Below are positions 1,964-34,753 of a stretch of DNA of 64,000 nt, in pieces (positions within the stretch are counted from its first letter, which is position 1; every line of letters begins with the position of its first letter). The position numbers were made by a program, and so were the translations under genes. This DNA comes from Candidatus Bipolaricaulota bacterium (GTDB taxonomy: Bacteria; Patescibacteriota; Patescibacteriia; UBA11705; DATKZF01). The stretch is taken from positions 292,651-356,650 of the forward strand of contig DATKZF010000003.1 of the NCBI GenBank assembly GCA_035528115.1, given 5' to 3'. The notes under the pieces are model-generated. The model was not told where the DNA came from. It worked only from the letters and a program-made list of their open reading frames with translations, and searched no databases.

Positions 1964-2188
1964 TTCTTTTTCCAGCCCCCAGAAAGAAGACAGGGCTGCT
2001 ACAAATAATATGTCTTCTGCGGCACATCACAGCCCGCCGTTCCCTTGCACAGGGAAAAGGGCTGTTAACATAGGGCGAGACTGCACTAGTTTCGCCCCCT
2101 CAAGCAGAGTAAGCTTTACTCACTCCTCCTCTCCGCCTCTGGCGGAGAGAAAAGCTTGCTCTACTTGAGAGAAAAAATTAATACAAAA

Positions 2189-2222
2189 AATCGCCAACTA
2201 ATGTTGGTGATTTTTTGTTTGC
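2189..2222 (+). terminator. Intrinsic terminator downstream of the island-1 gene
   Basis: Stem atcgccaac / gttggtgat followed by TTTTTTGTTTG. Confidence 0.5.
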
Positions 2223-2353
2223 GTTCTACTGTGGAACACCATGAGCGATAATTGTCCCTCGACTTCCTGCCTGCCGGCAGGCGCTCGGGACACTCGACTC
2301 GTCATATGGTGGTACACCACGAGCGAGCCCGAGCAGCGCGAGGGCGAGTCGAG

Positions 2354-2430
2354 TGGTGGACCCGGCAGGGATCGAACCTGTGACCTCCTGTGTGCAAAAC
2401 AGGCGCTCTAGCCAACTGAGCTACGGGCCC
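2354..2430 (-). tRNA. tRNA-Ala (TGC)
   Basis: Cloverleaf with anticodon loop tttgcac and the G3:U70 identity pair; CCA is encoded. Its 3' end faces GC island 1. Confidence 0.9.
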
Positions 2431-2520
2431 GAGAATAGAAAATATTTTTTCGATCATCGACGCTAAAAAATTATACCAAATATATTATTCATCGTCAATC
2501 TCCGGTATTTCCCTGAAATA

Positions 2521-2556
2521 TTTTAAAAATAAAAGCGCCGGATCCGATAGCGCTTT
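2521..2556 (-). terminator. Intrinsic terminator of the helicase gene
   Basis: Hairpin aaagcgcc...ggcgcttt followed by a T-run on the minus strand, immediately after the stop at 2561. Confidence 0.7.
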
Positions 2557-2560
2557 TGAA

Positions 2561-5500
2561 TTACAGAGAATCTATTAAAATGGACTCCAACTCAGCGTCC
2601 AAATCTTCCGGGATATTTTTTTGTTGAGAAAACGATGCCAATTTGACTCGAATTTTCTCCCACGTCGGGTCATCTATTTCCACCTCTTGTTCTTTGGCTA
2701 TTTCTTTTACCCTCGCCGCGCATTGTCTCAAAACGCTCGGCCAATCCTCGTTCTTATTGGAGAGACGGGCGAATTCTTTGCCTGCGGATTCGGCTCGCCT
2801 GACAAGATCAGCGACTTTGCCGCGAGCATATGAGGCGTCATCCGTTTTGGCAAGTTCCGCGGCAAACGCCCCTAATTCTTTTTTCGCCTCTTTTATTCTT
2901 GCTTTTAATTTTGCTATTTTAGAAGCATTGGGATCTTTTTTTCCCGCGTCGGGAATTGAATTGACAATATCCCATAAAAAGCGGGCGTTGCTTAATTCTT
3001 CACCGAATTGATTTCTCAATTCCGATGTCATTTTTTCCCTTTCCTCCGTTTTGGATTTGGGCAAGTGTCTTTCTTCTTTCGGGACGGCTTTTGCCGTTTG
3101 CGCTTCTTTACCGGATATTTTACCCAGCAGTGTCGCGAACACACCCGCGGCAAGCCCTTCCTTGCGCTCCGGCATTTCTTCCTTTATCGATTGAGCCGCT
3201 CGGTATGTAGCGTCATTATCATAAGAAGTTTCAACATCATAAAAAGTTTCAACGCGAGAAATCGCCCTCCAACCGTATGGCGCGCCTGTTTTTTCTTCAA
3301 CCTTAAACACATCGCCGGCGTCTCTGGAAAAAAGATAATCTCCGTCGGTTAATTTCCAGCGTTCACCTTCGCGCCCGCTTCCATAAACAAACACCAGTCG
3401 CGACCCTTTTACCAAAAGCTCGCGTCCGGATCCGCCAATGGCTATTTCGTCCGGCGCGTGCGCTATATCGCTTGTCTGCCCGGGAGAAAAAGCCTCCGCC
3501 ACTCGTCCACCGCGAACGCGTATGATTTTAGCGTAGCCGGAATTACGACCGGATAATATATCAACCAACATTTCTTGTTCGGGAGTAAATTCTTGCTCTT
3601 CCGGCAATTCCGCCTCCAATTCTTGAAACAAAGTCTCGGATTTGTCGGGATCGAGCAAAACCGGCCGGCCGTATGGATCTTCCACCTTTAGAGCGTTAAC
3701 GGCCTCGCTCCATTTATTCCTTAGCGCTGAATATTGTTCATAGGAAAGTCCGAATCGGGCATAGTTATTATAATCGATTCTCTCTATTTTATCGGCAAGC
3801 CCATCCATTATTTTTTGAACTTCCGGAGCTCTTTTCAATCGTCTTTCAATTTCCATCGATCTTTCGGCGATAGCGGCGCGGATCGATTCCAAAATTTGAA
3901 GCGCTTTCTTCGGATCGGCGTCGGGACTCTCAATCACGGATCGCGCCTCGTTATATTGGCGCTCCAGCTCAGAACGCTCGTCATAAGAAAATCCTTTTTC
4001 GCGATATCCGGCAAGCAACTCTTTCATCGTGTCTTGCATAACCGCATATTGCTCTTTCGCCGGAGCCAGAAATTGCTCCCTGTCTATTTTTCTTTGTTTT
4101 CTCGCGTCATCTTGCGTTTTTTGCTCAATGGCTCTCTCGGTGGAATTTGCCGCGGCTTCGTTCGTGCGGAAATATCTCACACCGTATTCATATTTATATT
4201 CACGTTTATCGTAATCATAATTTGGCCCCAGAATATTTATTCCGGGCATAACGAAGACTTCTTCCCCTCGGTGATTTTTTGCGATAACGACCGGTCGCGC
4301 TCCCAGCTCTTCAACGGTTGGCAAGGGGAAAAAATCTTCGACTTTTATTTTCAATGTCTCCGGCGGTCTGAAATTATACCAAGCCTCATCAAGCCGTTTT
4401 TTATCCATTGCTTCTTTAAGCTTTGCAAGCGACTCAACGACAACATTGTATCCTTCCCCCGATTTGTACAATATCGCGGGACGCCCGGTCGCTCCGATTG
4501 ACGGAGCATCTTCTTCGGTCATAGAAAAAACCAAATCAACGGGAATATTCAAGGTAGCCGTAAATTTTTCAACTTTTTCGCTTTCCAACCAGCCGTTAGG
4601 ATTGGCAAGACGATAATCATAAGAAACTCTGACGGCCACGCCCTTAATTTCAACTGTCTCCGGATGCGATGCGTTAATTTCCGATAAAGTTTCAAGCGGA
4701 CAAAAATCTTCGATGTTGATTCTCATTTGCTCATCAATGTGGGCGGCCTCCTTTTTGCTTACGCAACCACCCGCTTTTTCTTTATACCAGTCGCCGATCA
4801 CGGGCAATTTGATCATGCCTCCGGATCGGACATAAAGCGAGTGAAGCAGCTCCATTGCCTCGTTATTGCGTTCAACGCATGGCAAATCCACTTTGCCTTC
4901 AACCAACGCTTTCATGAACACTTCCGCTGCTTTTTCATGATCTTTAACTATCCGCCTCTGTTCAACCAATGGCGAGCTCCGTCCCTTTAAACCGAGACGC
5001 GAGAGTTCAATCACTGAGTCTTGCTCGGGATCGTAGCTGAAAGATTTGTCATATTCCCTTAAAAGTTGCGGCGCTATTTCCGGCAGCCAGGTGGGATCAA
5101 CAGGCTGACAGCTGCGGGCGTATGTTTTCGAAGTCCTCATGACATCAGCGCCAATCATCAATTCCGGTTTCATCGAAAATACGGTTGAAGAAGGATGTAT
5201 ATAAATTCTATCAGATCGCTGCTCAGTTCCTTGAACCACGCGCTCATAAGCGAATTTACCGGAATAGGCCATCAAATGCTGAATCAAGCCCGCGGCAATG
5301 CACTTCTGAATCTCAACGGGATCGTTGCCGTTGGCGTCATCCACCGGCACTCCCCTTTTTCTCAATACGCGCATAAGCTGAGAGCGGATTTCTCTAACCT
5401 CAAACAATTGACGAACATTAAGATAATGATCTATCGCCCAGCCTTCACTGAAACCGGCCGCTGACCATTGACGCCCAATCTCCAGCAATCTTAAAAAATC

Positions 5501-7000
5501 CGAACCCTCTTTCGCAAACTGGTTATGCGCCGTATCTGCCTCATGCTCTTTGCCTTTCGGCCGCGCAAAAATGGATTTATCTCCAAGCATGGCCGCAATG
5601 GTGCAAATTTTTCCTACACAATGATGTTTTTCCGCCTCCAATACCATGCGGCTTATCTCCGGCCGCAATGGCAATTCAGCCATGACCTTGCCGATCGCGG
5701 TAAGCTTTTCTTGATCATCGAGAGCACCCAACATTTTCAGAGTCTCAACGGCTTGGGAGATGGCGCTCTCGCTTGGACGATCAATGAAATCAAATCCTCT
5801 GACATCTTCAATGCCCCCGTTCTTCATGGCCAAAATCACATGATCCAAATTGGAACGCGCGATTTCCGGCGTTTGAAAATCGGGTAAATTCTGATAATCC
5901 TGCTCGGTGTAAAGCCGATAGCACACGCCCGGGGCGGTGCGCCCGGCGCGCCCTTTTCGCTGTTCACAACCCGATTTGGCGTGTTGTTTAACCGTTAGCG
6001 CTTCTATGCCGGTTACTGGATTAAATTCTTTTTGCTTGATGAGACCCGAATCAACGACGAAACGAACGCCATCAATGGTCACCGATGTTTCAGCGATATT
6101 GGTGGCGACGATAATTTTTCGTTTGGCGCTTTTTAAAAAAATTTTATCTTGATCTTCCGAGGCCATGGCTCCGTAAAGCGGCAAAACCTCGACTTCTTTG
6201 ATGCCCAAAGATTCTATTTGCTTGATTGTCTGCTGTATTTCTGCTTTGCCCGGCATAAAAATCAAAACATCGCCTTCCGCGCCGCCTTGAACAATCTCTC
6301 TGACTTTTTCCGCGGCTTCTAATATGTAATCGCGGACAGTAGATTTTTCATATTTAACATCAACCGGAAACATTCTTCCGGCCACCTCTACTACCGGCGA
6401 CTTCTCGAAATAATTTGAAAACTTTTCTTTTTCGATCGTCGCCGAGGTGGCCAGCACTTTAAGCTGCTTTTTACCTACCTTTACCCTTTCTCTTTGAATA
6501 CGCTTTAAAAGTCCGAGCACAAAATCAATATTAAGAGACCTTTCATGAGCTTCGTCGACCATCACCACGTCATATTCTTCAAGCAACGGATCGCTTTGCA
6601 TTTTTCTAAGCAATATTCCTTCAGTCATGAAATTCGCTCGAGTGCCTTCAGTGGTTTTGTCCTCAAAACGCACTTGATAGCCGATCTCATCTCCAATCCT
6701 GCCGCCGCGTTGCTCCGCGACATAACGCGCGACCGAACGCGCGGCCACGCGCCGCGGCTGAGTGATGGCGATTTTCGCTTTTGGCAAAGCGTCAAGCAAA
6801 AAAACGGGGATTCGAGTGCTTTTGCCCGAACCGGTTTCGCCGATAATGACAGCGTTATTATTGTTTCGCACGCATTCAACCACTTCTTGACGCCGCTCAT
6901 CCATGGGCAACGCCGCCTTTTCTAAATTGCGCGCTCTTGGAATCTCCGAAGACGGTTTCGGCCGAGATTCCATTGAAGGATTCAAATTATTTTCCGTCAT
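2561..7000 (-). CDS. hrpA: DEAH-box ATP-dependent helicase HrpA/HrpB-like with a long E/K-rich coiled-coil C-terminal extension (1479 aa)
   Basis: Motifs GETGSGKST, DEAHERS and SATIE plus an HA2/OB-like region in the N-terminal ~650 aa. The C-terminal half is low-complexity coiled-coil. Confidence 0.8.
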   Translation of the reverse strand: MTENNLNPSMESRPKPSSEIPRARNLEKAALPMDERRQEVVECVRNNNNAVIIGETGSGKSTRIPVFLLDALPKAKIAITQPRRVAARSVARYVAEQRGGRIGDEIGYQVRFEDKTTEGTRANFMTEGILLRKMQSDPLLEEYDVVMVDEAHERSLNIDFVLGLLKRIQRERVKVGKKQLKVLATSATIEKEKFSNYFEKSPVVEVAGRMFPVDVKYEKSTVRDYILEAAEKVREIVQGGAEGDVLIFMPGKAEIQQTIKQIESLGIKEVEVLPLYGAMASEDQDKIFLKSAKRKIIVATNIAETSVTIDGVRFVVDSGLIKQKEFNPVTGIEALTVKQHAKSGCEQRKGRAGRTAPGVCYRLYTEQDYQNLPDFQTPEIARSNLDHVILAMKNGGIEDVRGFDFIDRPSESAISQAVETLKMLGALDDQEKLTAIGKVMAELPLRPEISRMVLEAEKHHCVGKICTIAAMLGDKSIFARPKGKEHEADTAHNQFAKEGSDFLRLLEIGRQWSAAGFSEGWAIDHYLNVRQLFEVREIRSQLMRVLRKRGVPVDDANGNDPVEIQKCIAAGLIQHLMAYSGKFAYERVVQGTEQRSDRIYIHPSSTVFSMKPELMIGADVMRTSKTYARSCQPVDPTWLPEIAPQLLREYDKSFSYDPEQDSVIELSRLGLKGRSSPLVEQRRIVKDHEKAAEVFMKALVEGKVDLPCVERNNEAMELLHSLYVRSGGMIKLPVIGDWYKEKAGGCVSKKEAAHIDEQMRINIEDFCPLETLSEINASHPETVEIKGVAVRVSYDYRLANPNGWLESEKVEKFTATLNIPVDLVFSMTEEDAPSIGATGRPAILYKSGEGYNVVVESLAKLKEAMDKKRLDEAWYNFRPPETLKIKVEDFFPLPTVEELGARPVVIAKNHRGEEVFVMPGINILGPNYDYDKREYKYEYGVRYFRTNEAAANSTERAIEQKTQDDARKQRKIDREQFLAPAKEQYAVMQDTMKELLAGYREKGFSYDERSELERQYNEARSVIESPDADPKKALQILESIRAAIAERSMEIERRLKRAPEVQKIMDGLADKIERIDYNNYARFGLSYEQYSALRNKWSEAVNALKVEDPYGRPVLLDPDKSETLFQELEAELPEEQEFTPEQEMLVDILSGRNSGYAKIIRVRGGRVAEAFSPGQTSDIAHAPDEIAIGGSGRELLVKGSRLVFVYGSGREGERWKLTDGDYLFSRDAGDVFKVEEKTGAPYGWRAISRVETFYDVETSYDNDATYRAAQSIKEEMPERKEGLAAGVFATLLGKISGKEAQTAKAVPKEERHLPKSKTEEREKMTSELRNQFGEELSNARFLWDIVNSIPDAGKKDPNASKIAKLKARIKEAKKELGAFAAELAKTDDASYARGKVADLVRRAESAGKEFARLSNKNEDWPSVLRQCAARVKEIAKEQEVEIDDPTWEKIRVKLASFSQQKNIPEDLDAELESILIDSL

Positions 7001-7010
7001 AAAATTTCAA

Positions 7011-7619
7011 TTATAAAAAAAGCGGAACGCTCGAAGCGTCGGCCTGTTTTTGATAAAAGATTCGCTTGCCATATGACCGCGAGAAATAAATTGCGGCAAA
7101 AAGCGGTAATGCCGGAATTTCTCCAATAAGGATAACCTTCTCAGCCGGTAAAAAAGCGTTTGGGAGCAATGGAATAAAATCTTGCGTCCGAGAGACAACC
7201 GCATCACCGGTAGTTTGTTCCCAAAGAGAAATAAGATCTATCTGGCGCGACGACCGCGCGCCAGCCAAGTCTGAAACGTTGGTTCTTTGATCTTTAACCT
7301 TTTTAATCTTATTCCAAACATCGTTGGAAAAAGTCTCAGCGTACGAAACCGGAGACTTTGAATGCAAAAAAAGTCGCATCAAACTATTATCCGGCATTCT
7401 AATCAGCGTTTCATCGGCTATATCGCAAAATATCGCGAAAGTCGCCGCCGACGCTTCAGCCGGCCAGTCGCTTGGCAAGACGGCTATCTCACCTTGAGCT
7501 TGAATCGCGACATGATTTCTAAAATCATGATATCCTTTCTCGTTACTCAAATTAAAATCATCCATTAACCGTATTGAAATGAAATCTCGCGCAATTACAG
7601 GCATCGCTCCGATCGTCAT
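7011..7619 (-). CDS. Hypothetical protein with weak resemblance to HPPK (FolK)
   Basis: Pattern GARSSRQIDLISLW resembles the HPPK motif GPRTLDLDIL. The stop lies 10 bp from the hrpA start, so the two are likely co-transcribed. Confidence 0.3.
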   Translation of the reverse strand: MTIGAMPVIARDFISIRLMDDFNLSNEKGYHDFRNHVAIQAQGEIAVLPSDWPAEASAATFAIFCDIADETLIRMPDNSLMRLFLHSKSPVSYAETFSNDVWNKIKKVKDQRTNVSDLAGARSSRQIDLISLWEQTTGDAVVSRTQDFIPLLPNAFLPAEKVILIGEIPALPLFAAIYFSRSYGKRIFYQKQADASSVPLFL

Positions 7620-8045
7620 AATTAAAAAAGTTAATATATTTCAACTGAGTTAATTATATCATCTGCTCCGCGCAACAACAACATTCAATCGGTCCGGCCA
7701 CGCCTTGCAATAAAATTTCATATTCCGAAATTCAAATTTCAACTTTTAACTTATTTTAAAAAATTTATAAAACATTTGTAACAAATAATAAAACAATAAA
7801 CCAAGGCTAGCTAATCGGAATTTTTAATTCGTAACGTAAAAGTTTTCCACAGTTTAAATAAAAAACATTGTTTGCATTTAAAAAACAGTTTATAATTTAA
7901 ATGTGATTGTTCTTTAAATAAAAAATAAAAATTAAATTATAAAAATTTGATTTTTTCTTCCAAAGACAAACTTGTCTTACAATATATTTCGAAAGTATTG
8001 TAATTCATTTTTGCAAGGAAGGCGAAAGGAGGTGAAAACAAAATT

Positions 8046-8222
8046 ATGCCAGCTAAAAAAAGAAAGAAAGCCGTGAAGAAGGCGGCTCCTAAGAGAAAGA
8101 AAGCAGTGAAGAAGACCGCGAAGAAAAAAGCGGCTCCTAAGAGAAAAAAAGCCGTAAAGAAGACCACTAAGAAAAAAGCGGCTCCTAAGAGAAAAAAAGC
8201 CAGTCGCAGAAAGAAAAAGTAG
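8046..8222 (+). CDS. Small basic Lys/Ala-rich repeat protein (58 aa), histone H1/Hc1-like DNA-binding candidate
   Basis: RBS AAAGGAGGTGA; AAPKRKKAVKKT repeated three times. It is absent from the ORF track because it is under 60 aa. The 7937..8239 minus-strand ORF is its antisense artifact. Confidence 0.6.
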   Translation: MPAKKRKKAVKKAAPKRKKAVKKTAKKKAAPKRKKAVKKTTKKKAAPKRKKASRRKKK

Positions 8223-8229
8223 TATAAAA

Positions 8230-8272
8230 ACAGCCCCATTTTCCTCGCGAAATATCAGGGCTGTTTTATTTT
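8230..8272 (+). terminator. Intrinsic terminator
   Basis: Stem acagccc...gggctgt followed by TTTTATTTT. Confidence 0.7.
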
Positions 8273-8339
8273 AAATATTTGAAATTTTGAAAATTGCTAA
8301 TTGGAGCTTATTTGTTATTTGACGCTTGTTATTTGGAAT

Positions 8340-9599
8340 TTACAATAAGGTCTCCTGCTTTGGCGCAAACTTTTTAATATCTTGATCATCGAATATTTTC
8401 ACCTGACCGTACACTCCGTCATATCCCGGCTTTATGCTGAGATTGCCCGTGCGAACTCTATTCACCGCTTCGGCCAGCAATTCATTTTCTTTTTTCAAAT
8501 CATCAATGCTTGATTCAAGCAAGACATTGAACTCGCTGCCAAAATTATTTATCAAATCGTCATAAACTTTGGCGACTTTTTTTGTTTTTGACTTGACCTG
8601 AAAACATTCGGCGATGATTTCGGCCAGCGGCACCAAGCTTTTATATGGAATGGCATTGGCCGGCGTAAATCCCGGCGGCCGATCAGCCAATTCATCCACG
8701 CGGTAATCAACGCCGAGCGTCAGCGGTTTTTTGCAGACCGGACAAATCCCTTTCAATTTTTTCGTTTCCGCGGGAGAAAAAGAAGTTTTACAGTCGGCGT
8801 GGCCGTCATAATGATACTTGCCTTCTTGCGGATAAAATTCAACGGTGTACAAAAATTTCTTTTTATCTTTATTTTTCAACAAATTGTAAATTTCATCATA
8901 ACTGAAATCATTCAACTCGAAAACATTAGCCTCTCTGCCGAGATTGGCCGGGCTGTGGCTGTCGCCGTTGGAAATCAAAGTAATGCGATCAAGAGCTGAT
9001 AAGCGCCAATTCATGGCAGGATCGGACGACAAACCGGTTTCAGCCGCGAAAATATTGGGCGACAATTCCTCAAAGCATTCTTCGATTGAATCAAATCCCG
9101 ATTTTGAGCCGAATAAAGAAAACCACGGCGTCCAAATGTGCGCCGGCGCGATTATGAATTTTTCATTGATGTCCAAAGCCATTTTCGCCAATTCTTTGGC
9201 GTCAAGGCCCAGAATCGGCCGGCCGTCCGACTTAATGTTAAATCCCATTTTGTCCAACCGCTCGTTCAATTTTCCAACCGCTTCAAGCGTTGGCGCGAAA
9301 AGTAGAATATGAATCCGCCTGGTCTTGTCATTTTTTTTGTAAATGCAAGAAATTTCATTGGATAATAAAAAATGAGTCTTTTTTTCGCCAAGATCGCCTT
9401 TGAAAGTAAAAATCCCGAGGCCGTTATCGACCAATCCGACTTTCAATTCCTTAAAATACGCCGGATGGCAAAAATCTCCGGTGGCGATAAGGTCAATGCC
9501 TTTGATTTTCGCTCGCTCGCTCAAATTCAAAATATCCATTTCCTTGGATGTGGCTCTCGAATATTTGGAATGCAAATGAAGATCGGCGATGATTTTCAT
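8340..9599 (-). CDS. PHP-domain nuclease, endonuclease Q-like
   Basis: N-terminal IADLHLHSKYSRA PHP motif; C-terminal Zn-finger-like CKTSF...CPVCKK. Confidence 0.5.
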   Translation of the reverse strand: MKIIADLHLHSKYSRATSKEMDILNLSERAKIKGIDLIATGDFCHPAYFKELKVGLVDNGLGIFTFKGDLGEKKTHFLLSNEISCIYKKNDKTRRIHILLFAPTLEAVGKLNERLDKMGFNIKSDGRPILGLDAKELAKMALDINEKFIIAPAHIWTPWFSLFGSKSGFDSIEECFEELSPNIFAAETGLSSDPAMNWRLSALDRITLISNGDSHSPANLGREANVFELNDFSYDEIYNLLKNKDKKKFLYTVEFYPQEGKYHYDGHADCKTSFSPAETKKLKGICPVCKKPLTLGVDYRVDELADRPPGFTPANAIPYKSLVPLAEIIAECFQVKSKTKKVAKVYDDLINNFGSEFNVLLESSIDDLKKENELLAEAVNRVRTGNLSIKPGYDGVYGQVKIFDDQDIKKFAPKQETLL

Positions 9600-10979: not shown

Positions 10980-11098
<119 letters not shown>

Positions 11099-11160
11099 TA
11101 CCTCTTTAAAATTGTTGCTTTAAAATAAACTTTCTCATTTAAGTGGTTATGCATTTGACT

Positions 11161-14156
<2,996 letters not shown>

Positions 14157-14534
14157 GCATAACCACTAAAATGAGAAAATTTGTACTGTTATATTGATTC
14201 TCCATAGTATGTTGATATACTCGACGAATAAATTGAAAATTTATTTGTCATTTTTTAATTGTCAATGATCATGAGACAACTTAATCGGAAATAAAAAAGG
14301 CATTCGCAGCTCTGAAATCGTTATCTTGTTCGAGCAAACGACTACCTGTGGATAATTTAAATTGTCTGTGAAACATTATACATTAAATAAACGAACCATG
14401 TCAAGCAGCAAACCTTTTGCTTCAAAACATTGACATTTTCGCTAAATTACGGTATAATTATTCAGTTACAAGATTAAAGTTTCTAGTTGAAAGTATGGGG
14501 TGATTTTTAATCCTACTGAACTTTAATCTAACAA

Positions 14535-26076: not shown

Positions 26077-26451
26077 TTACTCATTCAAAAAATCGTAAAA
26101 GAGCGAAGACGCATGGGAAATCAACCGCAGAATCTCCGTGAAATGCTTGCGCCTGAGTCTGGCGGACGCGCCCGCCACCATGCAATTTCTCCTCTTTAGA
26201 GCGGCCAGATCCGCCAAGGCGGCTCTCAAGGGCTCATTCTGCCTAATAATTTCTTTTATCAACATGTACACGGCGTCCGCGCCCGGGTAACGACGCAGGA
26301 AATTCTTCTTTCTTGTTCTGCGCGCCAGCTCGAGCGTTGCGCACAACTCAAAGACGCGATGCGCATCGCACATGCCACGGTTGTACAGCTGAAGGACGAA
26401 CAACTTCACCATCACCCTATTGAAAGTATCCAGCGTCGGTCGTCTGGTCAT
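26077..26451 (-). CDS. Hypothetical cytoplasmic protein (125 aa), GC-rich island 4
   Basis: Very strong RBS AGGAGGAGGAG immediately before ATG MTRRP; upstream promoter TTGACA-17-TATTTT. Confidence 0.5.
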   Translation of the reverse strand: MTRRPTLDTFNRVMVKLFVLQLYNRGMCDAHRVFELCATLELARRTRKKNFLRRYPGADAVYMLIKEIIRQNEPLRAALADLAALKRRNCMVAGASARLRRKHFTEILRLISHASSLFYDFLNE

Positions 26452-26579
26452 CTCCTCCTCCTTTAATAAATAAAAAATATCAATTCCGCGCCGCGCTGTC
26501 AAACGCGGCTTATTGGCTGATTGACAAAAAAGCGATTTTATGAGACGGTATACCAGGCCAAGCAACAAGGAGGATCGCC

Positions 26580-27353
26580 ATGAAACGGTCAATTTGTCTG
26601 GCTCTGTGTCTGTCTCTGTCGGTTTTGGCAAGCTGCGGAGCCAATGCTCCAAACACTTGCCCTGATCAAATCGTCTGGAACGTGCCGTATTCCTTGTGCG
26701 GCCAAAGCTGCGCCAAGTCCGAGACTGCGTGGGCAGGCGTCAACAAGAACATCTGCACAATGATGGAGGCAAGGATCTCACATGCCCCTGTCGTGAGCGG
26801 GCCATACCTGTTTCAGCTTTCGATGTCTTCGGCCTACGGAGCTTTGAGTCTTACTACCGCGCAAGAAGTCAGCGACTTGTTCCACATCTTCTACCCGCTG
26901 ACACAGCCGACGCACCAGCCGGGCGAGGTCGCGGGAGACTTGGTGTCAAACGAACAGCCATACCTCGTTCTGATTAACGGCGGCAACGTCAAAGAAATCA
27001 TTCAGTTGCGTGCGCTCGACGTTCCTTGGATGAACAAAGGCCGGGACTTTATTCCCACGGACAGGGACGCACTGCTTCTGGAAATCATGTCCAAAATGCA
27101 CGTCAACAATGACGGCGCATACACGTTGATACCTGTCAACATCAATTGTCCAATCTCGGAGTGCTATACCATCGATCTTGCTCCGGAGACCGTTGAAGGG
27201 TTTTTCCACATGGGTAAGACTCCTCGCAGAATATGGACTGTACAATATCAACAAAAGGAATTGACCGGCATCATCGAGATGGTCTTCCTCGATAACAACA
27301 GTTGCCGCAAACCTGAGACACCCGAGCCATTAGCCCCTGTCTTCGACCTCTGA
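26580..27353 (+). CDS. Lipoprotein (257 aa), GC-rich island 4
   Basis: RBS AAGGAGGA; signal peptide with lipobox LASCG; about 55% GC. Confidence 0.6.
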   Translation: MKRSICLALCLSLSVLASCGANAPNTCPDQIVWNVPYSLCGQSCAKSETAWAGVNKNICTMMEARISHAPVVSGPYLFQLSMSSAYGALSLTTAQEVSDLFHIFYPLTQPTHQPGEVAGDLVSNEQPYLVLINGGNVKEIIQLRALDVPWMNKGRDFIPTDRDALLLEIMSKMHVNNDGAYTLIPVNINCPISECYTIDLAPETVEGFFHMGKTPRRIWTVQYQQKELTGIIEMVFLDNNSCRKPETPEPLAPVFDL

Positions 27354-27418: not shown

Positions 27419-28090
27419 ATGAAATACGACATTTTAACTCTTTTCCCAGAAATCTTCGACTCTTATCTAAATGAGAGTATTTTGGGACGCGCTCAAAAAA
27501 ACAAGAAAATTCAAATCAAAATCCATGACATTAGAAAAAACGCGATTGATAAACACAACACCGCCGATGACAAGCCGTATGGCGGCGGACCGGGCATGGT
27601 CATGATGATCGAGCCGATTTACAAAACCTTAAAAAAAATCAGACGCAAAAAAAACTCCAAGGTTATCTTATTGTCCGCTCGCGGCAAAACATGGACTCAG
27701 CAAAGAGCGCAAAAATACAAAAAATTGGATCAGCTGATTTTAATCTGCGGACATTATGAAGGCGTGGACGAAAGAATCAAAAATTTCATTGATGAGGAAA
27801 TTTCCATCGGCGATTATGTTTTGACCGGGGGCGAGCTGGGCGCCATGGTTTTAGTTGATTCCATCTCAAGATTGATTCCCGGAGTACTGGGCAAAAAGGA
27901 ATCCTTGAAAGAAGAATCTCATTCCCAAAAAGGTTATTTGGAATATCCTCAATATACTCGGCCCGAAATATTTAAAGCTGGTGGCAAAAAATACGCGGTG
28001 CCGGAAATCTTACTCTCGGGCCACCATTTGAAAATAAACGAGTGGCGACAACGCCAATCAAAAAAGTTTGATTTTTTTAACAAGGTCTGA
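27419..28090 (+). CDS. trmD: tRNA (guanine37-N1)-methyltransferase
   Basis: PYGGGPGMVM and GDYVLTGGE SPOUT motifs. Confidence 0.9.
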   Translation: MKYDILTLFPEIFDSYLNESILGRAQKNKKIQIKIHDIRKNAIDKHNTADDKPYGGGPGMVMMIEPIYKTLKKIRRKKNSKVILLSARGKTWTQQRAQKYKKLDQLILICGHYEGVDERIKNFIDEEISIGDYVLTGGELGAMVLVDSISRLIPGVLGKKESLKEESHSQKGYLEYPQYTRPEIFKAGGKKYAVPEILLSGHHLKINEWRQRQSKKFDFFNKV

Positions 28091-28136
28091 TAAAATAAAA
28101 AAATAAACTCGCTATTCGCGAGTAAGGGAGCAACCA

Positions 28137-28331
28137 ATGAACGGGGAACGCAAAATTCTGATTCCACAAATCAGGGATTTCGAGAAGTTGAAGGTGAACG
28201 CGCCTTCTCAAGGAATCCAAGCTCTCTGCAACTTGCCCTGCCACCAGGTCTGCCGCGCCTGCAGCTGCAAGGCCCCTCAGGACAAACCAACAACACCCCA
28301 AAACGAATACAGGTTCAACTTCGGGGCGTAA
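28137..28331 (+). CDS. Cys-rich small ORF (64 aa), candidate RiPP precursor
   Basis: RBS AAGGGAG; CNLPCHQVCRACSCK cluster; convergent with the rSAM/peptidase genes. Confidence 0.3.
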   Translation: MNGERKILIPQIRDFEKLKVNAPSQGIQALCNLPCHQVCRACSCKAPQDKPTTPQNEYRFNFGA

Positions 28332-28361
28332 CAACGCATCCCGAGAAAGCGTCTCTCAAGT

Positions 28362-28391
28362 GAGAAGGAAAAACCCTTCTCATTTTAATTT
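28362..28391. terminator. Bidirectional intrinsic terminator
   Basis: gagaagg-aaaaa-ccttctc followed by ATTTTAATTT. Confidence 0.55.
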
Positions 28392-29063
28392 CAAAAATAA
28401 GTACTTTAATAATTTGTCAATATTAGCGTCTCGATAAAGCTCAATAGAATTTTTATAAATTTTTTCATGTTCCGGATAAGGCTTTTGCTTTCCGATGTTA
28501 AACTTTTCTTTGCATTTACTGGAATTCATTATATGTATATTTATAATCTCAGAAACCGCCCATAATATATTCTCGTTCTTCTTGCCAGTAAACGCTGGGA
28601 ACCTTGCAAAAACATAATCATAAAAAATAAAATGAAGCATTTCATGAATAATTGTTTCAATTATACCGACCCTTTTATAATATGCCTGAAATATCTTATT
28701 CTTTATATCCCGTGGATTGCAATTCCAGATAGATAAATAGCACTTGTATACCCCCTTTGGGAAGGGGTGGCAATTAAAATACTCTTCGGCGAAACAAAAA
28801 AATTCATCACTTTTTCTATCCCACGCCTTCTCAGATGCAACTTTCGCTTTCAATATATCTTTTAAATGCGTTTTATAATATGAGGCCGTGTATGACTTTA
28901 GTACACATGGACTTATTCTTCCTTTCTTTTTCAATTCAGGATGCGAATTCAAAATACCTTTTTCAAAAAAAGAAAAACCTCCAAATTTAATTTTTCTAAA
29001 TTGGCAAGCTATTTTATAATCCAACTTTTCATCTAGACGAAACAGTAATTTAGGATGGTTCAT
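28380..29063 (-). CDS. HExxH-motif protein (putative metallopeptidase)
   Basis: IIHEMLHFIF motif. Confidence 0.5.
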   Translation of the reverse strand: MNHPKLLFRLDEKLDYKIACQFRKIKFGGFSFFEKGILNSHPELKKKGRISPCVLKSYTASYYKTHLKDILKAKVASEKAWDRKSDEFFCFAEEYFNCHPFPKGVYKCYLSIWNCNPRDIKNKIFQAYYKRVGIIETIIHEMLHFIFYDYVFARFPAFTGKKNENILWAVSEIINIHIMNSSKCKEKFNIGKQKPYPEHEKIYKNSIELYRDANIDKLLKYLFLKLK

Positions 29064-29106
29064 AAAAAAATGGCAAACTTCAATGTAAGTTTACCATCTC
29101 GAAACA

Positions 29107-30495
29107 CTATCGCAAAGACTTGTAAAACGTCCAGATGAGGTATTCAAGCGTCCTTTTTGCATGGACGCAGAACACCTCATCAATATCATAGAGATTCCCA
29201 TGTTTGATTTCGGCATAATAAGGACAGCCTCCACCGCATATTGCCAACGCCGGACAAGAAAAGCAATGGGCTATATTCAACGGAGATCTTTGTCCCCAGT
29301 ATTTGAATTCCGCAGAACCTCGGAAATCGAAAGACTGCTCCTTCACGTCGGTAATGAAATATTTACCTGTTCCCAAAAACCCCGCACAAATACCTACGCT
29401 CCCTTTGGGAGATACCACAATCTGACTACCGCACCCAGCGCAATCATAGGGGTGGCAGTTCCCCATGACAAACGCATCGAACTTTCTACCCATTCTATCT
29501 TCATAAATTCCCCTGCGTTTCAAATGTTCAAATCCAGAAATCAAGGCCTTGGCAACCCTTTCGCCATAATCATCCGAGACTGCATATGGTGGTATTGGCC
29601 TAACAATATTGAAACCGACACTTTTGATTGCCGGCGTTTTATCTATCCATTCCAAAATTTGATCAAAGTCCCTCAGGCTTTCTTCACCCAAGGTACAGGA
29701 GATCCCGAACTCTGCGCCCACTTGATGCAGTAATTCCATCCCCGCAAAAATTGCCCTCACTGTTTTATGACTCTGACTGCGGTTAAGGTTCAATGCGGCC
29801 GGGCCGTCGATTGAAATAACCACAGTAACCCCATGCTCTTTCAAAAAAACGGCTATCTCCCTGGTCAACAAGGTACCATTTGTAATAATCGAAATGTCGG
29901 TCTTTTTAGGCAGTTGTGACCTCTCCACAAAGGAAAGAATTGACAGAATGGCCCTTTTCAGACCTCGCTCATTAATCAAAGGTTCCCCGCCATAAAGAAT
30001 CACCTAGCATTCAGAATGACTGGCCAATGTCACCTGGCGGGCGAAAAATTGAATCGCCGCATCCACGGTCGACTCAGACATCAAAGCAGGACGGTATGTG
30101 GACGGAAAACTATTTCGGACAAAACAATACCTGCATGATAGATTGCATTTATCAGTCAGCAACAAGTACATTACAGAGACGCCCCATATCATCTGCTTTG
30201 AACGAAAAGACTCCAGTTCTGCTTGACTGTCATGCGTATCCAAGACAATGAACTTCTTCGACAGAAGAAGCTCGAACATTTTTTCCGAATCATCCTGTCC
30301 CATTCTCAAATGGTCAACAAATTCTTCCCTTATAAACAAAGTGCCGGTCAACCATTGAATGAATGGCTCGTTGCTCATGGGAAAAAAGATTGGGCTAATT
30401 CCCAAAGAATGATAGAGACAAAGGGCCTCATCTCCCTTATAAAAGTGCGTGAACGGAGATATTCTATACTTGTTTTCAAGGTTCAATCCTGGCAT
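29107..30495 (-). pseudogene. Radical SAM / SPASM-domain enzyme interrupted by a single in-frame TAG (at 30004..30006)
   Basis: The N-part carries CNLSCRYC (CxxxCxxC). The C-part begins VILYGGEPL and ends with the Cys-rich SPASM motif CAGCGS...CFSCPALAICGGGCP. Both parts share one frame, separated only by TAG. RBS AAAGGAGA before MPGLNL. Confidence 0.6.
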
Positions 30496-30615
30496 TTCCG
30501 TCTCCTTTCGTTGTTTAGGCTTTGCCACTCGCATTTTAGAATATTATTTGAAAATATTCAAAAATCCCGTAAAAACTACCCACAATTAATCCACCTTTTG
30601 GAACCAAAAAAAGAT

Positions 30616-30644
30616 TTGACATCTTTTTTATATTGCGATATAAT
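30616..30644 (+). promoter_or_regulatory. Consensus sigma70 promoter TTGACA-17-TATAAT for 16S rRNA
   Basis: About 100 nt upstream of the 16S 5' end. Confidence 0.6.
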
Positions 30645-30744
30645 CTTTACCACATTGATCTTTACAATAGAAAATTGATAGAAAGAAGTCCATTGTTTAC
30701 TTTTTTTCAGAGTTTTGACCAACTCTTTTCAAAATGGTCAAATT

Positions 30745-32231
<1,487 letters not shown>

Positions 32232-32464: not shown

Positions 32465-32541
<77 letters not shown>

Positions 32542-32631
32542 GCCTTCGCTAAAGCTTCGGCTGGCAGGCCAACTTTTAGAAATCGGTCCGATTCATCGGG
32601 ACTCCAAAATTTTTCACTTTTAACTTTTTAC

Positions 32632-32708
32632 GGGCGTGTAGCTCAGTTGGTTAGAGCGCAGCACTGATAATGCTGAGGTCATAGGTTCGATTCCTATCAC
32701 GCCCACCA
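32632..32708 (+). tRNA. tRNA-Ile (GAT)
   Basis: Anticodon loop ctgataa. Confidence 0.85.
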
Positions 32709-32774
32709 GCCTTCGCTAAAGCTTCGGCTGGCAGGCCATAAGATGCTTGCCCGACAAAGCCTTGGCGAAGTCGG

Positions 32775-32849
32775 GCCAGGTTAGCTCAGTGGTAGAGCGA
32801 AGGACTGAAAATCCTTGCGTCCCCAGTTCAATTCTGGGACCTGGCACCA
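32775..32849 (+). tRNA. tRNA-Phe (GAA)
   Basis: Anticodon loop ctgaaaa. Confidence 0.85.
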
Positions 32850-32960
32850 TTCGACTCGCCCTCGGTGCCACTCGGGCTCGCTCATGGTGTGCCACCACCT
32901 GAATGTACGAAGTGAGGCGAGTGCCCTGAGTTTATGGAAGGGTTTTTTTATTTTTGTTTG
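32850..32960 (+). repeat. tRNA 3'-trailer element (class 1) copy
   Basis: TTCGACTCG...CTCGCTCATGGTGTGCCACCACCTG...GAGGCGAGTGCCCTGAG followed by a terminator-like hairpin and T-run. Confidence 0.7.
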
Positions 32961-33025
32961 TTATTTGATATTTGTTGTTTGGAATTTGTTTAGGATTTAG
33001 TGTTTAGAATTTATAATTTAATCCA

Positions 33026-33102
33026 CGGGGTGTGGCGCAGTTGGCTAGCGCGCTTGCTTTGGGAGCATGAGGCCGTGGGTTCGAGTCCCACCACCCCGAC
33101 CA
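33026..33102 (+). tRNA. tRNA-Pro (TGG)
   Basis: Anticodon loop tttggga with one mismatch in the anticodon stem; acceptor CGGGGTG. Confidence 0.75.
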
Positions 33103-33162
33103 GCCTTCGCTCCTCCTCGCTCCGCTCGTCGGGGCTTCGGCTGGCGGGCCAGCCAAAAAAAT

Positions 33163-33420
33163 ATGCAAAACCATTTAAAATATTTTGTTTATATAGCACA
33201 AAGTTTAATTAAAGATGATGAATTTTATAAGGGATATTCAGTTGATATTGACGAAAGATTGATTAAGCATAATTTAGGATTATCCAAGCATACTGCAAAA
33301 TATAAACCATGGAAAATTATATTTTATTGCGCTCTTAGCAATAGAGAAAAAGCTATCGCTTTTGAGAAATATCTTAAATCCGGATCAGGAAGGGCTTTTG
33401 CCAAAAAAAGATTCATATAA
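33163..33420 (+). CDS. GIY-YIG nuclease superfamily protein (UPF0213/YhbQ-like, 85 aa)
   Basis: YFVYIAQSL...GYSVDIDERL...KYL.SGSG pattern. Confidence 0.6.
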   Translation: MQNHLKYFVYIAQSLIKDDEFYKGYSVDIDERLIKHNLGLSKHTAKYKPWKIIFYCALSNREKAIAFEKYLKSGSGRAFAKKRFI

Positions 33421-33561
33421 TTTAAATCGCTTGGCGGGTTTACCCCGCTAAAATTTCAACATGCCTACGAGATGGCGGGCCTGCTCCTCGAGTCTGAGCG
33501 ACGAGATCGTCAGACCTCGGAGTCGAAGACCCGCCGAAGCTCGAACATAGTGAGAGCGCAG

Positions 33562-33636
33562 GCGGGTATAGTATAATGGCTATTATGTCAGCCTTCCAAG
33601 CTGAATATACGGGTTCGATTCCCGTTACCCGCTCCA
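33562..33636 (+). tRNA. tRNA-Gly (TCC)
   Basis: Anticodon loop cttccaa. A partial 3' duplicate lies at 33750..33772. Confidence 0.85.
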
Positions 33637-33645
33637 ATAAAAAAA

Positions 33646-33682
33646 TCCCAACGATGTGTTGGAGTTTTTTTATTTAGGAATC
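33646..33682 (+). terminator. Intrinsic terminator
   Basis: tccaac-gatgt-gttgga followed by GTTTTTTTATTT. Confidence 0.65.
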
Positions 33683-33826
33683 GAACCCATACCAAGAGCA
33701 AAACAGATTCCCGCTGCCCTGAGCGAGAGAGGCTTTACCGAACGAGTCGAAGGGTTACCCGCTCCAATAAAAGAACTTCAACATTGCGTTGAAGCTTTTT
33801 TATATCAGTAAAATAATCTCAAAAAT

Positions 33827-34591
33827 TTACGCCACCTCAAAAAACAATCTTAACAGCAACATAAAGCCCAAACCCAGCAAAAAGAAAATAAACGCGAGAA
33901 TCGATTTGCTAAGCTTCAGCTCGCGATTGAGCTCGGGAATCAAATCCGAGGCCGCAATATAGATAAATCCGCCGGCGGTAATGGCCAAAAGCAGCGGCGT
34001 AACGCCCTCAATATGTCTGGCCAAAATCAAACCGATCACAGCGCCAACAACCGCGATAAGCGCGGACATAAAATTGTAAAACAAGGCTCTTGCTTTAGTA
34101 AAACCGCCATAAATTAAAACTCCGAAGTCACTGATCTCCTGCGGAATTTCATGAGTAATAACCGCCAATGTTGTCACCAACCCCAGATGAAAATCAGCCG
34201 CGAAAGAAGCGGCAATCACCAAGCCGTCGATAAAATTATGAAAACCATCGCCGATCAAATTCATATAAGATAACGCTTTTCGATGTCTTTTCTCATCGCA
34301 CTCGCCTTTGCATTTATGATTGTGGTGCCAGTGAAAAACCCTTTCGATGATAAAAAACAACGTGAATCCCGACAAGATGAAAAAGGTTATGGAGATCGCC
34401 GGTTTTTCCGCCAGCGCCTCGGGGATCAGATGAAGCAAAGCCCCGCCCAAAAGCGATCCGGCGGAAAACCCCACCAAAAGCAATAAAATTTTCTCAAGCA
34501 ATTTATCTTTTAACAGCAATGCCAAGATGCCCGCGAACGATAAAAGGCTGACCAAAAAAGTTGCTCCGATTGTCCAAAGAATGATTTGCAT
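33827..34591 (-). CDS. zupT: ZIP-family zinc transporter
   Basis: Multi-TM; HNFIDGLVIA and HEIPQEISDF motifs. Confidence 0.8.
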   Translation of the reverse strand: MQIILWTIGATFLVSLLSFAGILALLLKDKLLEKILLLLVGFSAGSLLGGALLHLIPEALAEKPAISITFFILSGFTLFFIIERVFHWHHNHKCKGECDEKRHRKALSYMNLIGDGFHNFIDGLVIAASFAADFHLGLVTTLAVITHEIPQEISDFGVLIYGGFTKARALFYNFMSALIAVVGAVIGLILARHIEGVTPLLLAITAGGFIYIAASDLIPELNRELKLSKSILAFIFFLLGLGFMLLLRLFFEVA

Positions 34592-34678
34592 ATGCTCTCA
34601 GCATAGCAAAATATCAAGGCGCAATCAAGCGCTCAACGCTTGTTTTAAGCCTCAGGAATTGCTAAAATAATAATGCTC

Positions 34679-34753
34679 GCGGGCGTCGTATAGTGGTTAT
34701 TACATCGGCTTCCCAAGCCGAGAACGGCGGTTCGATTCCGCTCGCCCGCTCCA
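34679..34753 (+). tRNA. tRNA-Gly (CCC)
   Basis: Anticodon loop ttcccaa. Confidence 0.85.

Follow-up and report, generated by a model that had tools for sequence, protein, structure and literature searches.

Within the 64,000-nt stretch of DNA analysed here (the window), a gene for a radical SAM (rSAM)/SPASM enzyme is divided by an in-frame TAG codon; beside it lie a gene for an HExxH protein and, convergently, a small ORF for a Cys-rich peptide. This locus raises the question of whether these genes belong together and whether the TAG is an error, a decoded codon, a tolerated stop or the sign of a lost function. The results described below show that the rSAM maturase, the HExxH protein and the precursor form a genuine three-gene cassette for a ribosomally synthesised and then modified Cys-rich peptide, in an ultra-small bacterium of the Patescibacteria type. 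The reading that we prefer, with a probability of about 0.7, is that of a divergent, Patescibacteria-type and HExxH-bearing variant of the FibroRumin rSAM system with a recent nonsense pseudogene inside it. The coordinates of the features are collected in Table 1.

Table 1. Features of the cassette, with positions in the window.
Feature	Position	Strand	Description
N-terminal maturase piece	30004..30534	-	176 aa; RRE domain and CxxxCxxC rSAM cluster motif
In-frame TAG	30004..30006	-	Codon 177 of the 475-codon reading frame; read from the sequence
C-terminal maturase piece	29107..30003	-	298 aa; GGEPL, remaining rSAM barrel and seven-Cys SPASM
HExxH protein gene	28380..29063	-	227 aa; 43 nt downstream of the rSAM gene
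Precursor peptide gene	28137..28331	+	64 aa; convergent with the rSAM and HExxH genes
Hairpin, likely intrinsic terminator	28358..28385	+	RNA fold of -21.6 kcal/mol
Weak sigma-70-like promoter match	28068..28096	+	Consensus scan, 9/12 matches

The preliminary description had taken the two maturase ORFs for a single rSAM enzyme with a SPASM-type Cys cluster and perhaps an N-terminal RRE of around 100 aa, and each of these proposals was borne out. The Pfam Radical_SAM profile was divided between the ORFs, with positions 3-40 in the N-terminal piece and 50-166 in the C-terminal piece, and became continuous (3-166 of 166) after joining them. The top match of the joined 475-aa protein was the NCBIfam family TIGR04136 (residues 25-472 on profile positions 1-455 of 458, E 6e-85), with a score of 285.7 bits (E 6.2e-85), which is below the curated cut-off of 400. 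Both the rSAM motif (C130-x3-C134-x2-C137) and the seven Cys of the SPASM region (C365...G378-x4-C383, C424-x2-C427-x5-C433-x3-C437 and C456) fall at conserved alignment columns. At the N-terminus, ahead of the catalytic domain, a PqqD-like RRE fold was found, consisting of a three-stranded sheet and a three-helix winged helix; this domain is predicted to bind the leader, which has a motif conserved among the precursors. Translation of the maturase likely starts at the ATG at 30495..30493 (M14), which is preceded by the Shine-Dalgarno sequence AAGGAG (30507..30502), and not at the maximal ORF start at 30534. In the NCBI annotation, the N-terminal piece appears as a separate protein of 163 aa (HUT22448.1).

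The small ORF was tested as a candidate precursor gene. It encodes 64 aa that comprise the leader KILIPQIRDFEKL, the core CNLPCHQVCRACSCK and a C-terminal YRF, and it is preceded by the Shine-Dalgarno sequence AAGGGAG (28124..28130). Searches by tblastn detected homologues beside rSAM and HExxH genes (E 2e-10 and 4e-6), and profile searches with the peptide family gave E values from 1e-16 to 1e-28. Eight relatives share the pattern ...IP...F...CxLPCxxxCxxCSC...RF and adjoin rSAM and HExxH genes in every case with enough flanking sequence; in the resulting nine-member alignment, P10, F15, C31, L33, P34, C35, C39, C42, S43, C44, R59 and F60 are invariant. The convergent layout is repeated in three other loci (L002, L091 and L092), and Cys-rich ORFs with the leader motif were confined to loci that contain an rSAM gene. 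By these sequence criteria the ORF is a real precursor gene, as its initial placement beside an rSAM gene had suggested. Its GC content, described earlier as about 52%, was measured at 52.8% against 44.9% for the window. The alternative that the small GC-rich ORF is instead a structured RNA was considered and rejected: no Rfam match was obtained at gathering thresholds in the whole window, nor at E<=1 in 28050..28450, and conservation at the amino acid level supports coding.

Downstream of the peptide gene, a hairpin with an 11-bp stem followed by a U-rich tract (z = -4.66 vs. shuffled sequences) is likely its intrinsic terminator. The hairpin and the stop codon of the HExxH gene overlap. Upstream, the promoter match (TTGATT-17-TAAAAT with an upstream TG) lies inside the end of trmD, and it is possible that it serves as the peptide gene's own promoter.

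The HExxH protein had been put forward as a putative peptidase, and the fold found for it, of the zincin/M1-like type with a downstream Glu ligand as defined for gluzincins, agrees with this assignment. The motif is HEMLH, at residues 140-144. The protein is a member of a family that lacks annotation and comprises, at E<=1e-10, about 600 clusters of 50% identity; HEMLH...E is invariant in it, the Glu following HExxH at a spacing of 27 residues. Sequence similarity to entries of Pfam, NCBIfam or the PDB was not detectable. Compared with gluzincins such as the M1 aminopeptidase and thermolysin catalytic domains, the protein is a single domain of only ~230 aa, and its Glu spacing is longer than the approximately 18 residues of M1 peptidases. 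It is thus described here as a putative gluzincin-type metallopeptidase, with leader cleavage as its presumed task.

Two other roles for this protein were contemplated, which we regard as unlikely: it could tailor the peptide as an Fe/alpha-ketoglutarate-dependent HExxH oxygenase, or it might have a housekeeping function, as a zincin that adjoins the rSAM gene merely by position. ChlH and PflC are Fe/alpha-ketoglutarate HExxH oxygenases that tailor peptides. Nevertheless, the RiPP oxygenases of this type (ChlH, BpmH and PflC; IPR026337) showed no sequence match with the window protein and peptidase folds fit better: the IPR026337/TIGR04267 model did not match any of 35 members of the HExxH family (E<=1), and ChlH was likewise not recovered in the PDB sequence search. 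The HExxH gene follows the rSAM gene in 26 of the 80 genome loci, and among the 54 HExxH loci without the rSAM gene no consistent partner gene was found; about six of these carry a different rSAM/SPASM gene and the rest have miscellaneous neighbours.

From what is known of such families, the pathway would be as follows. The rSAM cluster and the two auxiliary clusters of the maturase would cross-link the five conserved Cys of the core, most likely through thioether bridges, and the HExxH zincin-like protein would afterwards trim the leader. The formation of thioethers on the core Cys is what we infer for the chemistry of this cassette.

The locus had been likened at the outset to sactipeptide or ranthipeptide clusters. 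This holds as far as a Cys-rich precursor-like gene beside an rSAM/SPASM enzyme is concerned, but the nearest named system is FibroRumin, made up of the TIGR04136 rSAM maturase and the Cys-rich targets of TIGR04135 and Pfam PF27848 ('FibroRuminTarg'). The window maturase has the same domain plan (RRE, rSAM and SPASM), and the precursors share a leader motif (h-h-V/I-P-x3-D/N...G-N), a Cys-rich core and an aromatic C-terminus, the window peptide aligning with canonical FibroRumin targets through the leader motif and the Cys core. In contrast, the CNLPC-type peptide of the window did not match TIGR04135 even at E<=10, whereas other Patescibacteria peptide classes of the same cassette did so weakly (E 5e-4 to 0.02). 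The gene order also differs, as the canonical locus examined (L093) carries its precursors in tandem upstream and lacks an HExxH gene, whereas the window cassette has a single, downstream, convergent precursor and an HExxH gene. NCBI lists the L093 protein under Desulfosporosinus sp. Tol-M. To our knowledge, the chemistry of FibroRumin is uncharacterised; a literature search with this name returned no paper, and a search on Patescibacteria or CPR together with ranthipeptides or sactipeptides returned no description of a cassette of rSAM, HExxH and Cys-rich precursor genes.

Ranthipeptide and sactipeptide maturases (CteB/SCIFF, TIGR03974; PapB, NF047865) resemble the window enzyme in being RRE-bearing rSAM/SPASM proteins that act on Cys-rich precursors. 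Matches were obtained with CteB (5wgg, E 8e-38), the PapB family (E 2e-35) and the SCIFF maturase (E 4e-26), but all scores were far below the cut-offs, and the window precursor has neither CxxxD repeats nor the SCIFF pattern. The closest structure to the window maturase was TigE. A CP-synthase GYW motif has been described for the cyclopropylglycine synthases TigE and TvgB (PMC10878394). This assignment (PDB 8vpo) was rejected, since the motif is absent from the window maturase and the substrate differs, being Cys-rich instead of a TVGG/TIGSVS repeat.

Regarding the TAG itself, the plus strand reads CTA at 30004-30006 and CAC at 30001-30003, so the two halves of the maturase gene are separated solely by a TAG followed by GTG, as had been reported. 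A sequencing or assembly artefact, in a genome that really carries a sense codon, would need just a single-base substitution in a gene that is otherwise perfect. However, the codon was the same in the three assemblies checked (L001, L007 and L008), which come from separate datasets or pipelines (contigs of JGI, 604 kb; ENA k141, 438 kb; and Logan, 11.7 kb), and this argues against an assembly error. Substitution errors are rare in consensus sequences such as these. Furthermore, the 176-aa and 298-aa fragments are each recorded on three contigs, and two additional contigs, of 762 kb and 621 kb, are among those that record the fragments. An artefact is thus very improbable. Over 6.8-12.2 kb, the JGI, ENA and Logan assemblies show 100% identity in this region, so that these contigs may all stem from one clonal population, and perhaps from related samples. 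A comparison of assemblies would miss an intact allele in the minority, or a systematic error common to all of them. When JGI metagenome contigs were scanned with the C-terminal fragment for strain variants that carry a sense codon, none of the 69 pattern matches was related, the source contigs lying evidently outside this collection.

Programmed recoding, in which TAG would specify an amino acid in the organism or in this gene (as with pyrrolysine or a reassigned codon), draws its sole support from the in-frame TAG within an otherwise conserved gene, and is barely credible in view of codon usage in the window. TAG terminates polA (DNA_pol_A profile positions 2-380 of 381), smc, four other Pfam-matched genes and also the maturase gene at the end of its C-terminal piece; in all, seven other long ORFs end in TAG, among them polA and smc, whose profile matches run to their full ends there, and therefore TAG is a normal stop in the window. 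The search for other in-frame TAGs in conserved genes, suggested at the start, revealed none within the window, where the only other same-frame TAG junction separates polA from holA, two distinct genes. No tRNA with anticodon CUA was present among the 10 tRNAs of the window, and homologues carry ordinary, variable residues at the site. Genome-wide TAG reassignment was rejected on the basis of stop usage, Pfam end coverage and the lack of a tRNA-CUA in the window. Of the three explanations first offered for the TAG, the evidence favours a recent pseudogene and speaks against sequencing error and recoding.

The residues that homologues carry at the TAG column are T (45), Q (13), S (13), V (12) and others. 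In the closest clade the residue is Gln, which fits a CAG to TAG change; a nonsense mutation at codon 177 would in its simplest form be of this kind, and translation would end once the RRE and the first element of the barrel had been made, with an expectedly inactive maturase. The rest of the gene is undamaged, which points to a recent event: it bears no second lesion, and at 61 highly conserved columns it shows 3 deviations, where homologues average 1.5 and 26% of them have three or more. The HExxH and peptide genes are intact as well. The maturase gene is thus most likely a very recently inactivated nonsense pseudogene and not a recoded gene.

Intact neighbours and a single lesion would also be expected if the TAG were tolerated in a working cassette, either by low-level readthrough of UAG with a near-cognate tRNA or by restart at the adjacent GUG. 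Restart would give two reassembling polypeptides, one with the RRE and the cluster loop and the other with the remaining barrel and the SPASM domain. In agreement with this, the stop sits in a predicted surface loop of the rSAM core, between helix alpha1 (154-172) and the GGEPL strand, GTG directly adjoins it, and the TAG is the sole allele in the three assemblies. Nonetheless, the alignment identifies this GTG as the ancestral codon for the conserved Val of VI[FL]YGGEPL, no Shine-Dalgarno sequence lies ahead of it, no feature that promotes readthrough was found, and none of 107 full-length relatives is naturally split at the same point. Moreover, independent relatives among the Patescibacteria have clearly destructive lesions in the rSAM gene, which makes its loss a common fate: L090 retains the HExxH and peptide genes but lacks the first ~284 codons, L004 breaks off ahead of the SPASM domain, L026 is reduced to a remnant of 49 codons, and L049, L060 and L092 are frameshifted, although frameshifts in these other MAGs could be assembly errors. 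In a tree of HExxH genes, rSAM-linked and rSAM-less members interleave. Tolerance of the TAG is consequently clearly unlikely, and it is less likely still that the divided maturase remains active, by a UAG stop and GUG restart or by leaky readthrough, and cross-links the CNLPC-type precursor. If that were true, an ultra-small symbiont would possess a naturally split rSAM RiPP maturase that works on a new precursor subclass together with a zincin partner hitherto without annotation.

With the maturase gene read as a fresh nonsense pseudogene, the isolated in-frame TAG is an ordinary nonsense mutation rather than a recoding signal. The maturase gene has been lost repeatedly, and the TAG of the window looks like the earliest stage of such a loss. 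The cassette is defined by a FibroRumin-like rSAM/SPASM enzyme, an unannotated HExxH family with a zincin fold and several classes of Cys-rich precursors with a common leader. Patescibacteria have tiny genomes with few biosynthetic genes, and this cassette recurs in many of their lineages (WWE3, Saccharibacteria, Paceibacterota and others); it may therefore matter for their interactions with hosts or competitors.

When the two minus-strand ORFs flanking the TAG (CTA on the plus strand at 30004-30006, preceded by CAC at 30001-30003, which is GTG on the minus strand) were joined, the Radical_SAM profile of Pfam, divided into positions 3-40 in the 176-aa ORF and 50-166 in the 298-aa ORF, was matched without a break (3-166 of 166). 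Residues 25-472 of the joined 475-aa protein matched the NCBIfam profile TIGR04136, 'FibroRumin system radical SAM peptide maturase', from end to end (1-455 of 458, E 6e-85, 285.7 bits against a curated cut-off of 400 bits), and PapB, CefB, SCIFF and other peptide maturase models of NCBIfam matched more weakly. Therefore, as proposed in the preliminary description, a single radical SAM (rSAM)/SPASM gene is split by one TAG. The joined protein carries a CxxxCxxC motif (C130/134/137), a GGEPL motif directly after the TAG and seven Cys in the canonical SPASM arrangement (C365, C383, C424-x2-C427-x5-C433-x3-C437, C456). As a Shine-Dalgarno sequence, AAGGAG, lies 6 nt 5' of the second Met (30495), which NCBI likewise annotates as the protein's start in the same genome, the gene probably has 462 codons; its relatives encode 462-473 aa. 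The maturase family profile aligned with CteB (E 8e-38) and, from residue 3 to 448, with TigE (8vpo, E 1.9e-47), thus reaching across the RiPP recognition element (RRE) of TigE (residues 3-85; PMC10878394) and supporting the suggested N-terminal RRE.

Features of the window and of comparison loci from other assemblies
Feature	Position	Strand	Remarks
Precursor peptide gene, 64 aa	28137..28331	+	Shine-Dalgarno AAGGGAG 6 nt upstream
HExxH gene, 227 aa	29063..28380	-	43 nt past the rSAM stop
Maturase C-terminal ORF, 298 aa	30003..29107	-	ORF call; same frame as the 176-aa ORF
Maturase N-terminal ORF, 176 aa	30534..30004	-	ORF call
High-GC stretch	26077..27353		1.3 kb, 50-56% GC (window mean 44.9%), between KH-domain gene and trmD
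Sigma-70 consensus	30616..30644		TTGACA-17-TATAAT, perfect (12/12), about 100 nt 5' of the 16S rRNA gene
16S rRNA gene	30744..32229		rSAM gene divergent from its promoter region
23S-5S pair	10985..14164		not linked to 16S; opposite strand, 16.6 kb apart
tRNA cluster	32465..34753		Val, Ile, Phe, Pro, Gly, Gly; downstream of 16S
GIY-YIG domain ORF	33067..33420		starts inside tRNA-Pro; between tRNA-Pro and tRNA-Gly
L090, damaged rSAM	3633..5198		5' deletion of first ~284 codons; HExxH and peptide genes intact
L004/5/6/11, damaged rSAM	5001..6989 (L004)		ends at ~390 aa, SPASM domain lost; no peptide gene
L026, rSAM remnant	4788..4934		last 49 codons only
L049, L060, L092, damaged rSAM	~1400 (L092)		frameshifts; in L092 inside the CGGGC motif
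L093, canonical FibroRumin locus	975..9404		flanked by DEAD/HNH helicase gene and JetABC (Wadjet) defence system
L019 ('Pseudomonadales' label), precursor ORFs	4638..5160		two tandem long Cys-rich ORFs, e.g. ...CSCSCSTSCACGGGVCACSCQCGAACGSCKCG...

The precursor peptide gene, followed by a strong hairpin with a U-tract (z -4.66), has relatives in eight clusters of 60-67 aa (profile search, E 1e-16 to 1e-28) and in an ORF of locus L002, and P10, F15, C31, L33, P34, C35, C39, C42, S43, C44, R59 and F60 are invariant in the nine sequences. Wherever the flank suffices, genes of this CNLPC family adjoin rSAM and HExxH genes, either convergently as in the window (L002, L091, L092) or co-directionally (L003, L090), so that the small Cys-rich ORF does have conserved homologues beside rSAM genes. 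Its GC content, described as about 52%, was computed as 52.8%, that of the rSAM gene as 44.7% and that of the HExxH gene as 30.6%; this unevenness across 28137..30534 may reflect amino-acid composition or differing gene histories. The HExxH protein had no sequence match in Pfam, NCBIfam or the PDB; a word-indexed search returned 38 relatives and an exhaustive profile search 598 cluster representatives at E<=1e-10. HEMLHF, W168, E172, N175, Y196, R118 and Y106 are invariant.

An HExxH profile scan with one genome per species yielded 99 loci, of which 80 were kept, nearly all from Patescibacteria with a few from Micrarchaeia and some from MAGs that are probably mislabelled. In 26 of these 80, the HExxH gene is immediately preceded by a FibroRumin-like rSAM gene, and in the rSAM-linked loci a small Cys-rich ORF is found directly 5' of the rSAM gene. 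The cores of these ORFs fall into several classes (KCGTCACKCACRYN..SPW; CCYTSCTRC; CSCVCxNPCACKCNCAC..CPW) behind a common leader, h-h-V/I-P-x3-D/E/Q-x2-K-V/I-L-G, and a strict regular expression for this leader plus at least three Cys matched 13 rSAM-containing loci, compared to 0 of 54 without rSAM. Three core classes matched TIGR04135, 'FibroRumin family radical SAM-modified Cys-rich RiPP', weakly (E 5e-4 to 0.02), whereas the CNLPC class of the window gave no match to it. The one canonical FibroRumin locus compared, L093 (a JGI metagenome contig; NCBI protein name Desulfosporosinus sp. Tol-M), holds two tandem FibroRuminTarg peptides and an rSAM gene but no HExxH gene, and the leader (..VP...D/N....GN) and Cys core of its peptides can be aligned with those of the window peptide. 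These comparisons make the cassette of the window a divergent variant of the bioinformatically defined FibroRumin system, to which a zincin (HExxH) gene is added and whose precursor is of a new subclass. In L019 the precursor ORFs are placed between HExxH and rSAM, which is not the gene order of the other cassettes. HExxH relatives with 31-33% identity were also found in three 'Candidatus Micrarchaeia archaeon' (DPANN) MAGs, L022, L023 and L028, with a neighbouring gene for a protein of ~30-aa NPETLQ(R/K)NFNFLNQTLGIKP repeats (immediately beside in L022 and L023, about 1.1 kb off in L028); the family may be shared across domains by ultra-small lineages, or the MAGs may be mis-binned.

Around the cassette, the high-GC stretch contains a 257-aa ORF, whose N-terminus is lipoprotein-like (MKRSICLALCLSLSVLASC), and an overlapping antisense ORF of 124/191 aa, neither with a Pfam or NCBIfam match. 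The stretch seems to have been inserted into the gene series rpsP-KH-trmD. The NCBI third-party MAG record (HUT22446.1, HUT22448.1) is labelled 'Candidatus Bipolaricaulota bacterium', which may be wrong: all cassette relatives are from Patescibacteria, and the contigs are 0.44-0.76 Mb long.

For the TAG, the preliminary description had offered a pseudogene, a sequencing error or readthrough or recoding. The window, TAG included, is 100% identical over 6.8-12.2 kb to three assembled contigs, from JGI (604 kb, sample 3300031565), ENA (438 kb, ERZ27256828) and the Logan assembly of SRR8554643 (11.7 kb). Each maturase fragment is on record on three contigs and the precursor peptide on eight, and NCBI lists HUT22448.1 (the N-terminal piece) and HUT22446.1 (the HExxH protein) as separate proteins of the same genome; an artefact is therefore very unlikely. 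Programmed recoding has even less to commend it and can practically be set aside, as TAG is an ordinary stop here: among 51 long non-overlapping window ORFs, 31 end in TAA, 11 in TGA and nine in TAG, the last including polA, smc and genes for an ATP-grasp protein, a NUDIX protein and a pilin, and none of the 10 tRNAs of the window reads UAG. The DNA_pol_A match of polA (2-380 of 381) ends six residues before its TAG, the split rSAM gene itself terminates in TAG, and the only further place in the window where real genes meet in one frame at a TAG, polA/holA, is the boundary of two complete and distinct genes.

The column at the TAG is variable in 107 full-length homologues (T 45, Q 13, S 13, V 12, others), with Gln in the closest clade (...P-Q-V-I-F-Y-G-G-E-P), so a single C>T transition (CAG>TAG) would be enough to create the stop. 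The window maturase departs from consensus at three of 61 columns conserved to at least 90%, compared to a mean of 1.5 in homologues, 26% of which depart at three or more. As the rest of the gene is undamaged, the lesion is either recent or tolerated. Tolerance, by readthrough or as a stop-restart split enzyme, seems rather improbable and is retained as the minor reading; the GTG 3' of the TAG (30003..30001) encodes the conserved Val of the VIFYGGEP motif rather than having newly arisen as a start codon, and it is preceded by no Shine-Dalgarno sequence. We thus take the window maturase to be a recent nonsense pseudogene, with a probability of about 0.7.

The rSAM gene is also damaged in several independent relatives of the cassette (see table), although some frameshifts of L049, L060 and L092 may be assembly errors. 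Despite this damage, the HExxH gene is intact in L004, L026 and L092 as well as L090. In a neighbour-joining tree, rSAM-linked and rSAM-less HExxH genes are intermixed, and only 41 of 74 have a nearest neighbour of the same rSAM status. This mixing fits a history in which the rSAM and peptide genes were lost repeatedly while the HExxH gene persisted, and the nonsense codon of the window fits as the initial step on that shared path.

In an intact cassette, the peptide leader would bind the RRE of the maturase, the rSAM/SPASM enzyme would cross-link the five conserved Cys of the core, most likely as thioethers if CteB, PapB and other Cys-rich systems are a guide, and the zincin would cut off the leader. 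The cassette lies between trmD and the 16S rRNA gene, and neither a transporter nor an immunity gene was found near it. With the maturase truncated after residue 176, no product is predicted unless the TAG is bypassed. The TAG itself being ordinary, the more useful by-products of its analysis are a Patescibacteria-wide cassette and an unannotated zincin family.
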